Part shown: positions 9,960 to 26,946 of the stretch, in pieces | Numbering within the stretch: position 1 is the first letter of the stretch | Layout of the letters: each line of letters begins with the position of its first letter | DNA from: Vectrevirus LI10P3 | DNA length: 44,534 nucleotides | Sequence record: OZ035807.1 | Strand: one strand, 5' to 3' | Notes under the pieces: generated by a model | The model's input: the letters and a program-made list of their open reading frames with translations, nothing else | What the model was told of the DNA's origin: nothing | Databases searched by the model: none | Translations under genes and position numbers: made by a program

Positions 9960-10085
9960 CACTAGTCAGCCTATCAAGGCGCAAACCAAGCTCTTTAACA
10001 ATTTGGATGGTAGCTTCTTAGTCTGGATAGGTTAAACCTAGGGGATTCTCTTGAGTCTCCTATAATGTAACCTAACTAACTAAAT
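9960..10085 (+). promoter_or_regulatory. RNase III-like processing element upstream of ocr
   Basis: GCTCTTTAACAATTTGG nearly identical to the motif upstream of T7 gene 0.3 as I recall it; CCTATC/GATAGG complementarity. Confidence 0.45.
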
Positions 10086-23186: not shown

Positions 23187-23210
23187 ATTTACTGGACACT
23201 ATAGAAGAGA
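23187..23210 (+). promoter_or_regulatory. phage RNAP promoter
   Basis: TATTTACTGGACACTATAGAAGAG, preceded by the GTCTCACATGTGAGAC palindrome. Confidence 0.7.
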
Positions 23211-23258: not shown

Positions 23259-23636
23259 ATGTTCAAGATTGAAACTATCGTAAACCGTGTTGTTAAAGGT
23301 GCTGCTCTGGTATCCGTTGAGTCTTTCATTATCGTCGATGAAGCTGATCAACTGGTAGCTGGTACTAAGGCTTATGATACTCGTGAAGAAGCTCAGGCTA
23401 AGATTGACAGCATGGGTAACTTCGCTGCGGGTCTGGAGTTCGCTCGTGCTTGCTTCCCTGAGCAGGCTGACAAAGCTCAGATTGGTAAGGCTAATATCGT
23501 AGCTGAATATCTGGATTGGATTGCTGCCGGTAAGCCGGTGAAAGAAGTTAAGTCTGCTGAAGAAGCTGAAGCTCAGGCAGTAGAAGAAGTAGCTGCACCG
23601 GTAGGTGCTCCGGTAAGCGAAGAAGAAGAGTTTTAA
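23259..23636 (+). CDS. highly acidic hypothetical protein (abundantly expressed)
   Basis: 125 aa, about 24 acidic vs 12 basic residues, C-terminus SEEEEF; strong RBS AAAGGAG; codon usage strongly biased to cgt/ctg/ggt/gct; own promoter and terminator. Confidence 0.7.
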   Translation: MFKIETIVNRVVKGAALVSVESFIIVDEADQLVAGTKAYDTREEAQAKIDSMGNFAAGLEFARACFPEQADKAQIGKANIVAEYLDWIAAGKPVKEVKSAEEAEAQAVEEVAAPVGAPVSEEEEF

Positions 23637-23641
23637 TTGAT

Positions 23642-23676
23642 GCCCTGTCTGCCTTAGTGTAGGCAGGGTCTTTTGC
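23642..23676 (+). terminator. terminator hairpin after acidic protein gene
   Basis: GCCCTGTCTGCC...TAGGCAGGG stem followed by TCTTTTG; near-identical in sequence to the hairpin after the capsid gene. Confidence 0.5.
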
Positions 23677-24006: not shown

Positions 24007-24947
24007 TAGATGCTGACATGTTACCCTACATCGTAGGTTATACAATCAGTGACATGACTTATGTACGAGCCACAACTCGTGTTAAGTCAGGACAAGTCCC
24101 ATCAATCAAAGATACACCTGAGTGTAAGCAAGCGTGTGACCGTGTGAACTCCTTGCTCAACTCTTGGGTGTATGCAGCAGAGTGTGATGCAGCTAAGTTA
24201 TTCATGACGAAATCAGAAGCTAACTTCCGTGTTCGCCTAGCCTTCACCAAGCCTTATAAGGGTCAACGTAAGACCGAGAAGCCTCCGTTCTTCTATGAAT
24301 TGCGAGAGCATCTCTTAGAGGTTCATGGTGCAATCTTGGCAGATGGAGAAGAGGCTGATGACCTCATGAGCATTGCACAATGGGACAGCCACCGCCGCTT
24401 CCAGCAAGATACAGGTAACGAGTTCCCTATCGGTAGTCCAGAGCATAAAGCATTCTCTGATACTTGCATCGTTTCCTTAGATAAGGATTTGATGATTGTT
24501 CCCGGTTGGCATCTTCAGCCGGGTCAAGAGAAGAAATGGGTAGAGCCTATGGGTTGGCTTGAGCTACGCCGTAAGGCTAATGGTCAGGTTAAAGACCTTA
24601 AAGGTGCTGGCCTCATGTTTCATTATGCACAGATGATTATCGGTGATGATATTGATAACTATGCTGGCATACCTGGACGTGGTGCTAAATACGCCTATGA
24701 TCTTCTCAAAGATTGTAAGACAGAGAAAGAGTTGTACATGGCAGTGCTTGGTGCTTACAAGGCTAAGTTCGGACATGGACAAGTTAAGATTAAGAATTAC
24801 CGAGGTGGTTATCGTATCGGCAAGGCTTTTGACCTGATGCTCGAATGTGGTCGCCTAGCCCACATGGCAAGATTCAAAGGTGATATATGGCGAGCCGATA
24901 AGAACCCAATCTTGTGGGGAGATGATGCGAAATGGTTAGCAAATTAA
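23919..24947 (+). CDS. 5'-3' exonuclease (T7 gp6-like, FEN/PIN fold)
   Basis: ATG 23919 with GAGGAG RBS; acidic clusters LIDADMLPY, DGEEADDLM, VSLDKDLM typical of FEN-type nucleases; position after DNA polymerase. Confidence 0.75.
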   Translation: MRPNFDFGATVSEDNNLLLWPTEGNRIALIDADMLPYIVGYTISDMTYVRATTRVKSGQVPSIKDTPECKQACDRVNSLLNSWVYAAECDAAKLFMTKSEANFRVRLAFTKPYKGQRKTEKPPFFYELREHLLEVHGAILADGEEADDLMSIAQWDSHRRFQQDTGNEFPIGSPEHKAFSDTCIVSLDKDLMIVPGWHLQPGQEKKWVEPMGWLELRRKANGQVKDLKGAGLMFHYAQMIIGDDIDNYAGIPGRGAKYAYDLLKDCKTEKELYMAVLGAYKAKFGHGQVKIKNYRGGYRIGKAFDLMLECGRLAHMARFKGDIWRADKNPILWGDDAKWLAN

Positions 24948-25342
24948 AATCATCGGAGGTAGCAGCTTATAAGAGGGAATTGCTAGAGAAGCAAGGGTGG
25001 AAGTGCCCACTATGTGGCGGCAGTCTCAAGGCTGTTACTCCTATAAACCGTGTACTTGACCATGACCATGAGACAGGATTCTGCCGTGCTGTTGTATGCC
25101 GAGGCTGCAATGGTGCAGAAGGAAAGATTAAGGGTGTTATCTCTGGTTACGGTAAGGCTGGTAACAACCGTTACTTCCAGCTTCAATGGTTAGAGCGACT
25201 ATATGAATACTGGAAGTTACATAGTACGCCTCAGACAGATAAGTTATATCACAAACATCAAACGGAGGCAGAGAAGCGCGAGGCTAAGAACCGTAAGGCA
25301 CGCCTTGCTTATGCAAGAAAGAAGGAGGTTAAAGTTGGGTAA
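24932..25342 (+). CDS. endonuclease VII-type Holliday junction resolvase
   Basis: 136 aa; CPLCGG ... DHDHETGFCRAVVCRGCNGAEGK zinc/His-Me finger signature of T4 endo VII family. Confidence 0.75.
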   Translation: MVSKLKSSEVAAYKRELLEKQGWKCPLCGGSLKAVTPINRVLDHDHETGFCRAVVCRGCNGAEGKIKGVISGYGKAGNNRYFQLQWLERLYEYWKLHSTPQTDKLYHKHQTEAEKREAKNRKARLAYARKKEVKVG

Positions 25343-26342
25343 GCTTCGCAGCTTGTACAAAGACTCCGAGGTACTTGATGCAATCGAGCAAGCTACCGAC
25401 GAGAAAGGTAATGTTAATTATAATGAGATGGCACGTGTATTATCGTGTCACCCTGTGGGTAAGAAGATTACCCGCCAGTTGGCTCGATACTGGCATGGTC
25501 AATTCAAGAAGACCAAGAAGAATGGTGATTATTACCAGACCCTTCTGCAAGAAGATAAGCGTATCAAAGAAGAGCGTAAGCTCAGGACTCCTGACCGCTA
25601 CGAGGATTTGGCTATTGTACCATTGCCTGACTCGCCTCATCGAAGTGTACTGGTAATCCCTGATACTCATGCACCTTATGAGCATCCAGATACCTTAGAG
25701 TTCCTTGCAGCAGTCGCGGCACGTTACCGTCCAGATACAGTGGTTCACTTAGGAGATGAGGCAGATAAACACGCCCTCTCCTTCCATGACTCTGACCCTA
25801 ATCTGGATAGTGCTGGCATGGAGCTAGAGAAGGCTCGTGTCTTCATGCACAAGTTGCACAAGATGTTCCCTGTGATGCGCCTGTGTCATTCTAATCACGG
25901 CTCTATGCACTTCCGTAAGGCAAGCGCCAAGGGTATTCCAGTACAATATCTTCGCACCTACCGTGAAGTCTTTTTCCCAAATGGAGGTGGCGACCAGTGG
26001 GATTGGCAGCATACACATGTTCTTGAGTTGCCGAATGGTGAACAAGTGGCATTCAAGCATCAACCTGCTGGCTCTGTCCTAGCAGATGCAGCGCATGAGC
26101 GTATGAACCTTGTGTGTGGTCACTTGCACGGTAAGATGTCTGTGGAGTACGCACGTAATACACATGAACAGTATTGGGCTGTGCAAGGTGGCTGCTTAAT
26201 TGATGAGTCATCCCGTGCATTTGCCTATGGTCGTGAGTCTAAATACAAGCCAGCATTAGGTTGTGTGGTCATTCTGGAGGGTGTGCCTCACATTGTCCCG
26301 ATGCAAACCAATAGCGACAACCGTTGGATTGGCAAGATTTAG
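25335..26342 (+). CDS. calcineurin-like metallophosphoesterase
   Basis: TTG start preceded by GAAGGAGG RBS; motifs IPDTHAPYEHPD, HLGDEADKH, HSNHGSMHF match the metallophosphatase signature. Confidence 0.65.
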   Translation: MGKLRSLYKDSEVLDAIEQATDEKGNVNYNEMARVLSCHPVGKKITRQLARYWHGQFKKTKKNGDYYQTLLQEDKRIKEERKLRTPDRYEDLAIVPLPDSPHRSVLVIPDTHAPYEHPDTLEFLAAVAARYRPDTVVHLGDEADKHALSFHDSDPNLDSAGMELEKARVFMHKLHKMFPVMRLCHSNHGSMHFRKASAKGIPVQYLRTYREVFFPNGGGDQWDWQHTHVLELPNGEQVAFKHQPAGSVLADAAHERMNLVCGHLHGKMSVEYARNTHEQYWAVQGGCLIDESSRAFAYGRESKYKPALGCVVILEGVPHIVPMQTNSDNRWIGKI

Positions 26343-26361
26343 TTGACACTATAGAACAAAG
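26340..26361 (+). promoter_or_regulatory. phage RNAP promoter
   Basis: TAGTTGACACTATAGAACAAAG. Confidence 0.5.
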
Positions 26362-26442
26362 GGCTAGGTAAGACTTTATCGGCTGGCGTATCCAAATGAT
26401 ATTGCACTAGCCCTTGATTGTATAGTGAATGGAGGATTCAAT

Positions 26443-26946
26443 ATGTCACACTATGAATGTAAGAAGTGTCATAAGCGTTATGATTACTGTACTTGTGGTC
26501 AAGAGAAAACATCTTTTAAAGTTGGAGACAAGGTATTTCGTAATGAAAAAGATTCGATTCCTTGGAATCAATACTGCAAAGAAGCTGGTATTGACCCTGA
26601 TAGCCCTGTAACCATAGATGATATTGATGGCATTAACTTGTGCTTTCGTGAGGTGAGAGGTACAGGTTGGGATTCCAAAAAATTCAAACTTGCATCTGAT
26701 AAGTTAGACAACAATATGGTAACTCAGCCTAAGCACTACGAGTTCTTTGATGGTGTAGAGGCAATCACTATCATTGCCCGCAGTATGACTGAAAAGCAAT
26801 TCGCTGGGTACTGCATGGGTAATGCCCTTAAGTATCGCCTGCGTGCAGGTAAGAAGTTCAATACTGAAGAAGACTTGAAGAAGGCAGACTATTATAAAGA
26901 GTTATTCCAGAAGCATCGTCACGAATGTATTGATGAGGATATTTAA
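26443..26946 (+). CDS. hypothetical protein, DUF3310-like
   Basis: 167 aa from ATG 26443 (GGAGGA RBS); N-terminal Cys-rich CKKCHKRYDYCTCG; KHYEFFDGVEAITII...GNALKYRLRAGKK resembles the phage DUF3310 family as I recall it. Confidence 0.5.
   Translation: MSHYECKKCHKRYDYCTCGQEKTSFKVGDKVFRNEKDSIPWNQYCKEAGIDPDSPVTIDDIDGINLCFREVRGTGWDSKKFKLASDKLDNNMVTQPKHYEFFDGVEAITIIARSMTEKQFAGYCMGNALKYRLRAGKKFNTEEDLKKADYYKELFQKHRHECIDEDI

Follow-up and report, generated by a model that had tools for sequence, protein, structure and literature searches.

A TTG-initiated metallophosphoesterase gene that overlaps the endonuclease VII gene of Vectrevirus LI10P3: comparative support for the start codon of a homologue of K1-5 and SP6 gene 22

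Immediately downstream of the endonuclease VII gene of Vectrevirus LI10P3 lies an open reading frame with the motifs of a phosphoesterase that seems to begin with TTG, and the locus therefore raises two questions: where does translation of this gene start, and on what substrate does its product act? Both were addressed by computational analysis of the 44,534-nucleotide stretch of record OZ035807.1 (hereafter the window), which belongs to the Vectrevirus phage group (K1-5/K1E-like; Autographiviridae, Molineuxvirinae); the endonuclease VII and phosphoesterase genes, their start signals and the promoter that follows them lie on the plus strand. The region 24900-26450 displays 99.9% DNA identity to Escherichia phage vB-Eco-KMB47 and 96-99% identity to many Vectrevirus genomes, the value for K1-5 being 96%. 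The metallophosphoesterase coding sequence occupies positions 25335-26342, from the TTG to a TAG at 26340-26342, and specifies 335 amino acids plus stop; its boundaries are identical in the deposited coding sequences of every annotated relative that was inspected, K1-5, SP6, AAPEc6 and KMB47 among them.

The gene is a genuine middle-class (DNA-metabolism) gene and a homologue of gene 22 of K1-5 and SP6. It is designated "22" in the original K1-5 (AY370674) and SP6 (AY370673) records, and later records use the names "metallo-phosphoesterase", "phosphoesterase" and "protein phosphatase 2a-like protein". The K1-5 (AAR90064 / YP_654123, "metallo-phosphoesterase") and SP6 (AAR90014) proteins are orthologues of the window protein, which shares 94% identity with its SP6 counterpart and 99.1% with that of K1E. 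Like the window gene, those of K1-5 and SP6 start with TTG, overlap the endonuclease VII gene by 8 nt and are followed by a phage promoter; there is no difference of substance between them, and the window simply represents another Vectrevirus isolate. GenBank has thus contained the gene, with its TTG start and family assignment, ever since the genomes of K1-5 and SP6 were submitted, and what is new here is the comparative support for the start, the remainder being a rediscovery of existing annotation.

The original prediction placed initiation at a TTG at 25335, 6 nt downstream of a Shine-Dalgarno sequence, and both elements are present as described: the TTG (25335-25337) is in frame with the reading frame ending at 26340-26342, as in the deposited gene 22 sequences of K1-5 and SP6, and GAAGGAGG is found at 25321-25328 with a spacer of 6 nt. 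The complete Shine-Dalgarno element, GAAGGAGGT, extends over 25321-25329 and includes an 8-nt match, AAGGAGGT, to the anti-Shine-Dalgarno sequence that ties for the longest in the K1-5 genome (RefSeq record). Among the 52 coding sequences of that record, 49 start with ATG, two with GTG and one with TTG, the sole TTG being that of the phosphoesterase gene. A sample of close relatives, comprising 18 distinct start-region sequences with at least 77% protein identity, carries an initiation codon at the homologous position in every case (TTG in 10, GTG in five, ATG in three), and AAGGAGG is conserved 5-7 nt before the start in the TTG and GTG forms. Such interchange of TTG, GTG and ATG at a single position is what classically marks an initiation codon. 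At the same N-terminus, which reads M-[SGA]-K-[ILV]-R, more distant homologues (about 42-58% identity) from phages of Aeromonas, Vibrio, Pseudomonas, Pectobacterium, Proteus and Klebsiella begin with ATG. Comparison of codons 2-32 with SP6 revealed eight synonymous and no non-synonymous changes, and with Proteus phage PM85 13 synonymous and three non-synonymous changes, so that the 31 codons following the TTG are, as judged from these substitutions, under purifying selection. In three relatives (loci L007, L036 and L037) an in-frame TAA directly precedes the GTG start. The alternation of start codons, the purifying selection and the stop codons just upstream in relatives together provide strong support for TTG 25335 as the true start. 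The predicted RNA fold around the start (25290-25380) was no more stable than that of shuffled sequences (z = -0.36), and a regulatory hairpin at this site is therefore not proposed.

Two in-frame ATG codons compete with the TTG on paper: one downstream at 25428 (codon 32), and one upstream at 25203, which overlaps the endonuclease VII gene out of frame. The existence of the former contradicts, taken literally, the original statement that no in-frame ATG follows the endonuclease VII stop, whereas the choice of the TTG made in that prediction stands, since both ATGs were rejected as starts on the comparative data. Initiation at 25428 would yield a 304-amino acid protein and reduce the TTG and its Shine-Dalgarno sequence to coincidence. 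It finds a precedent in orf30 of the SP6-like phage UAB_Phi78, annotated as 304 amino acids (PMC4837284), and Met32 is nearly invariant in the family. We nevertheless consider this start very improbable: it would remove 31 codons whose protein sequence remains conserved in homologues with as little as about 48% identity (R5, V13 and A16 being nearly invariant in the family) and whose changes relative to SP6 are exclusively synonymous, and the first helices of a domain modelled with confidence (pLDDT 84-94) are built from these residues. In addition, no Shine-Dalgarno-like sequence precedes 25428, and in distant homologues an ATG occupies the position of the TTG. Initiation at 25203, giving 379 amino acids and a 140-nt overlap with the endonuclease VII gene, has in its favor that it produces the longest ATG-initiated reading frame in a mechanical list of open reading frames; however, its likelihood is close to nil. 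The ATG is missing from SP6-type relatives, none of which has any in-frame start codon 5' of the TTG, the stop codons of L007, L036 and L037 close the frame immediately 5' of the start, the 44 additional residues have no counterpart in any homologue, and the codon is not preceded by a Shine-Dalgarno sequence. The misleading 379-amino acid "longest ORF" arises because the phosphoesterase frame has no stop codon in the 44 codons before the TTG (25203-25334); SP6-type and Klebsiella relatives either lack this extension or have it closed.

These comparative data settle a conflict among annotated starts, in which a 335-amino acid protein stands against versions of 304 amino acids or truncated and split forms. 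The 304-amino acid length given for UAB_Phi78 orf30 (PMC4837284), the K1E UniProt entries split into 104 and 237 amino acids, and the RefSeq coding sequence of Klebsiella phage NTUH-K2044-K1-1 (NC_025418.1), truncated to a GTG 40 codons downstream, all look like annotation artefacts. The last of these belongs to the KP34-like Drulisvirus clade, in several genomes of which TTG also starts the N-terminus L-A-K-[IV]-S-L-I-K-L-[FW]-T-K-E; the loci concerned are L014 (NC_025418.1, 475-1455), L067, L068, L080 and L086-L090, and sister Drulisvirus genomes (L064, L066, L069 and L075) have ATG at that N-terminus. Because several KP34-like genomes begin in this way, the TTG start recurs in a second subfamily, and N-termini of the family are often mis-annotated. 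A correct start is of practical use in curating the genomes of therapeutic Autographiviridae phages.

The endonuclease VII gene (K1-5 gene 21; 24932-25342), which is annotated in K1-5 and KMB47 and matches Pfam Endonuclease_7 with E = 1.5e-12, ends with a TAA at 25340-25342, 3 nt past the TTG, so that the two genes overlap by 8 nt and the phosphoesterase Shine-Dalgarno sequence is embedded in the last endonuclease VII codons. Translation starts at TTG 25335 by means of this near-perfect Shine-Dalgarno sequence and, because the endonuclease VII stop lies 3 nt past the TTG, termination-reinitiation probably helps initiation there. The weak start codon and tight coupling may keep phosphoesterase levels low and tied to that of endonuclease VII. 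Within the close clade, a TTG or GTG start accompanies a phosphoesterase gene that overlaps the endonuclease VII stop or directly adjoins it (distance -8 or 0), and in the ATG variants L032 and L034 another reading frame lies between the two genes, a pattern that comes from a small sample of sequences that are not phylogenetically independent. That a start codon other than ATG recurs together with a strong Shine-Dalgarno sequence and with coupling to endonuclease VII makes this gene a testable example of translational tuning.

The wider neighborhood is conserved as well. Within the class II block the gene comes immediately after endonuclease VII, as is characteristic of the PHROG 221/gene 22 group; it is preceded by gene 18, gene 19, the 5'-3' exonuclease and endonuclease VII and followed by a DUF3310 nucleotide-kinase-like gene and an ATP-dependent ligase. 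Of 81 non-redundant related loci, 50 have an endonuclease VII homologue no more than 300 nt upstream and a further 10 have one at up to about 600 nt, and several Autographiviridae lineages share the gene order exonuclease, endonuclease VII, phosphoesterase. PHROG 221, a family widespread in Autographiviridae, has the same neighborhood in most cases; its distant members start with ATG, in contrast to the TTG of the SP6/K1-5 clade and part of the Drulisvirus clade. At one locus (L038; IMGVR_UViG_2595698666_000001, 1276-2325) a single reading frame joins residues 1-76 of endonuclease VII, in frame, to residues 62-335 of the phosphoesterase through a deletion of roughly 400 nt that costs the former its C-terminus and the latter its N-terminal domain; this is either a natural fusion/deletion variant or an assembly artefact. 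The gene following the phosphoesterase in the window (26443-26946) encodes the DUF3310 protein (Pfam E = 3e-25), called "nucleotide kinase (gp1.7-like)" in some records and represented as two hypothetical proteins in AAPEc6, and in some relatives a polynucleotide kinase/phosphatase takes its place.

Promoter cores of the SP6/K1-5 type (TAC/GNNGACACTATAGRA) number 12 in the window as against 0.12 expected by chance. One of these phage RNA polymerase promoter cores, TAGTTGACACTATAGAA at 26340-26356, overlaps the phosphoesterase TAG and drives the DUF3310 gene. Others on the plus strand lie at 124, 2661, 4329, 10562, 14644, 16946, 21496, 21959, 23190 and 31983, and one is on the minus strand at 10058. 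The promoter at 23190 lies upstream of the phosphoesterase gene, and the next is that at 26340-26356. Just past the gene 18 homologue (23259-23636) there is a strong terminator-like hairpin at 23642-23669, with an 11-bp stem followed by a T run. Lying between promoter 23190 and the three genes for the exonuclease, endonuclease VII and the phosphoesterase, it might attenuate their transcription.

Members of the metallophosphoesterase superfamily share the motifs DxH, GD, a GNH(D/E)-like sequence, H and GHxH, whose residues serve as ligands of a binuclear metal center. All five motifs of this calcineurin-like superfamily (Pfam PF00149) are found in the catalytic domain of the window protein (about residues 104-335; 25644-26339): D110-x-H112 (motif I, 25662-25670), G140-D141-E-A-D144-K-H146 (motif II, 25752-25772), S186-N187-H188-G189 (motif III, 25890-25901), H242 (motif IV, 26058-26060) and G262-H263-L-H265 (motif V, 26118-26129). 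The peptides DTHAPYEHPD, GDEADKH and HSNHG, on which the family had initially been recognized, are all present in the translation, motif III thus reading SNHG rather than GNHD/E. Residues D110, H112, D141, N187, H188, H242, H263 and H265, and also G140 and G262, are invariant in 36 family sequences. The assignment, and with it the motifs, is upheld both by profile searches and by fold. Pfam Metallophos PF00149 is matched at the borderline (21.6 bits against a cutoff of 21.5, or 22.6 bits with the catalytic domain alone) and recognizes 16 of the 36 family members at E <= 0.01; the PHROGs family phrog_221, "metallo-phosphoesterase", matches residues 1-334, essentially the full length, with E = 3.4e-105. 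An AlphaFold2 model built from the 36-sequence alignment (pLDDT 87.6, pTM 0.83) has the four-layer alpha/beta-beta/alpha sandwich of the superfamily. The phrog_221 match and the modelled fold are decisive for a metallophosphoesterase assignment, and since the canonical metal-binding and catalytic residues are all invariant, this divergent binuclear metallophosphoesterase is expected to be an active enzyme.

The NCBIfam matches were all below threshold and were confined to PdeM, the ligase-associated DNA-damage-response endonuclease (TIGR04123; 21.9 bits against 150, over 33 residues around motif II), and YfcE (TIGR00040; 11 bits against a cutoff of 56), and no solved relative emerged when the PDB was searched by sequence, either with the protein itself or with a family profile. 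Homologues were identified by tblastn in at least 642 phage records, from phages of Klebsiella, Pectobacterium, Pseudomonas, Aeromonas, Vibrio and Proteus among others. Between motifs II and III the family has an invariant segment of its own, H146-x-x-S149-x-H151-x-S153-x-P155-x-L157-x-x-A160-G161, modelled at low confidence (pLDDT about 56-60), which may form a substrate lid.

The catalytic domain is preceded by a helical N-terminal domain (about residues 1-85; 25335-25589), in which L36, L49, Y52, W53 and G64 are invariant and which reaches a pLDDT of 86.6 when modelled alone. The shortest homologue, that of Pelagibacter phage HTVC026P, is without it. A Pfam search with the domain found nothing, and an exhaustive phmmer search of 1.84 billion representatives found it essentially only in the phosphoesterase family. 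Its fold matches are mostly DNA-binding three-helix domains, weakly suggesting a three-helix Myb/SANT-like fold in the model, and it is a reasonable if weak suggestion that the domain possibly binds DNA.

Taken as a whole, the most convincing explanation, and one that we consider likely, is that the locus is a gene 22 homologue that starts at TTG and encodes a two-domain phosphoesterase, which may be expressed at a low, coupled level and have a DNA-directed role. The product combines a conserved helical N-terminal domain of about 85 amino acids (possibly Myb-like and DNA-binding) with the metallophosphoesterase domain. The enzyme would work together with the 5'-3' exonuclease and endonuclease VII, attacking DNA or DNA ends as a phosphodiesterase or nuclease, perhaps in host-DNA breakdown, recombination or end processing. 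The gene neighborhood lends circumstantial support to such a role. The best fold matches of the phosphoesterase include DNA nucleases, but the fold search does not favor nucleases in particular, the generic small phosphodiesterases YfcE and MJ0936 scoring as high as DP1. The nuclease-type enzymes, namely archaeal PolD DP1 (5ihe), SbcD/Mre11 (7dog, 3av0) and T4 gp47, share 13-16% sequence identity with the window protein, in which no Mre11 capping domain was identified; no Rad50/SbcC partner is annotated in the K1-5 genome, and there is no DP2-type polymerase partner. YfcE (1su1) and MJ0936 (1s3l) are single-domain proteins of about 170-180 amino acids, whereas the phage protein has large family-specific insertions such as the invariant loop that begins at H146. 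A literature search found no functional, proteomic, biochemical or genetic study of this phosphoesterase family and no experimentally determined N-terminus.

The sole experimentally studied phage analogue found in the literature is Gp48 of mycobacteriophage A10ZJ24, a metallophosphoesterase with demonstrated phosphodiesterase activity that is reported to damage host DNA and so to blunt defence-gene expression (PMC12287305). Gp48, which is from a Cluster A phage and expressed early or in the middle phase, resembles the window protein in being a phage metallophosphoesterase with all five motifs (PMC12287305), but its phage belongs to another group and infects another host, and reports on it mention no N-terminal helical domain. 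Gp48 was not detected as a sequence relative, since no mycobacteriophage was among the tblastn matches listed; it may plausibly be a functional analogue of the window protein.

The alternatives differ in the substrate they assign to the enzyme. The names found in some records would make it a PPP-type (lambda-phosphatase/PP2A-like) protein Ser/Thr phosphatase that reprograms host proteins, and lambda phosphatase is indeed a phage-encoded member of the same superfamily fold. However, the PPP signature GDxHG...GDxVDRG...GNHE is missing, the window protein having PDTHAP, GDEADKH and SNHG instead, and the residue after D144 varies across the family where PPP enzymes have Arg, which makes this reading improbable. 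Because the signature is absent, the "PP2A-like" names were most likely taken from the Pfam title "Calcineurin-like phosphoesterase" and the label is probably misleading for a two-domain family represented in at least 642 phage records. For the same reason, among the activities originally put forward, namely a protein phosphatase or a nuclease acting on host or cyclic-nucleotide signals, a PPP-type protein phosphatase is the least supported by sequence, and a nuclease or phosphodiesterase appears to fit better.

A hydrolase of small-molecule phosphodiesters rather than DNA, serving in counter-defence or nucleotide salvage, is possible, although we think it unlikely. Candidate substrates would be immune-signalling nucleotides (cyclic di-, tri- or oligonucleotides and cNMPs), Ap4A and 2',3'-cyclic phosphates. 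To our knowledge there is no anti-CBASS, anti-Pycsar or anti-Thoeris enzyme with a metallophosphoesterase fold. The protein had no match among the PADLOC models, a library of defence rather than anti-defence proteins, and the linkage to endonuclease VII together with the possible DNA-binding N-terminal domain points to nucleic acid instead. A related proposal, which we regard as rather doubtful, is a host-directed effector, either a DNA nuclease or phosphodiesterase guided by the Myb-like domain, in the manner of mycobacteriophage Gp48, or a hydrolase of immune-signalling nucleotides, with weak TTG and GTG starts keeping a toxic enzyme low. If it were correct, the weak starts coupled to endonuclease VII in two Autographiviridae clades would reflect selection for a low level of the toxic enzyme. 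The DNA-directed phosphodiesterase or nuclease acting beside endonuclease VII remains the reading we prefer.

One member of the family departs from the others in its architecture. The 635-amino acid protein P0124 carries a 299-amino acid insertion exactly within motif II (GDE / insert / DNHAISFHDS); the insert has Cys as its first residue and Asn as its last, the next residue being Cys, and includes a LAGLIDADG-like stretch. Judged by these sequence features it looks like an intein with a homing endonuclease, for which Pfam and PDB sequence searches gave no confirmation. P0124 is similar to the 637-amino acid protein A0A514CY74 of Proteus phage vB_PmiP_RS8pmA.
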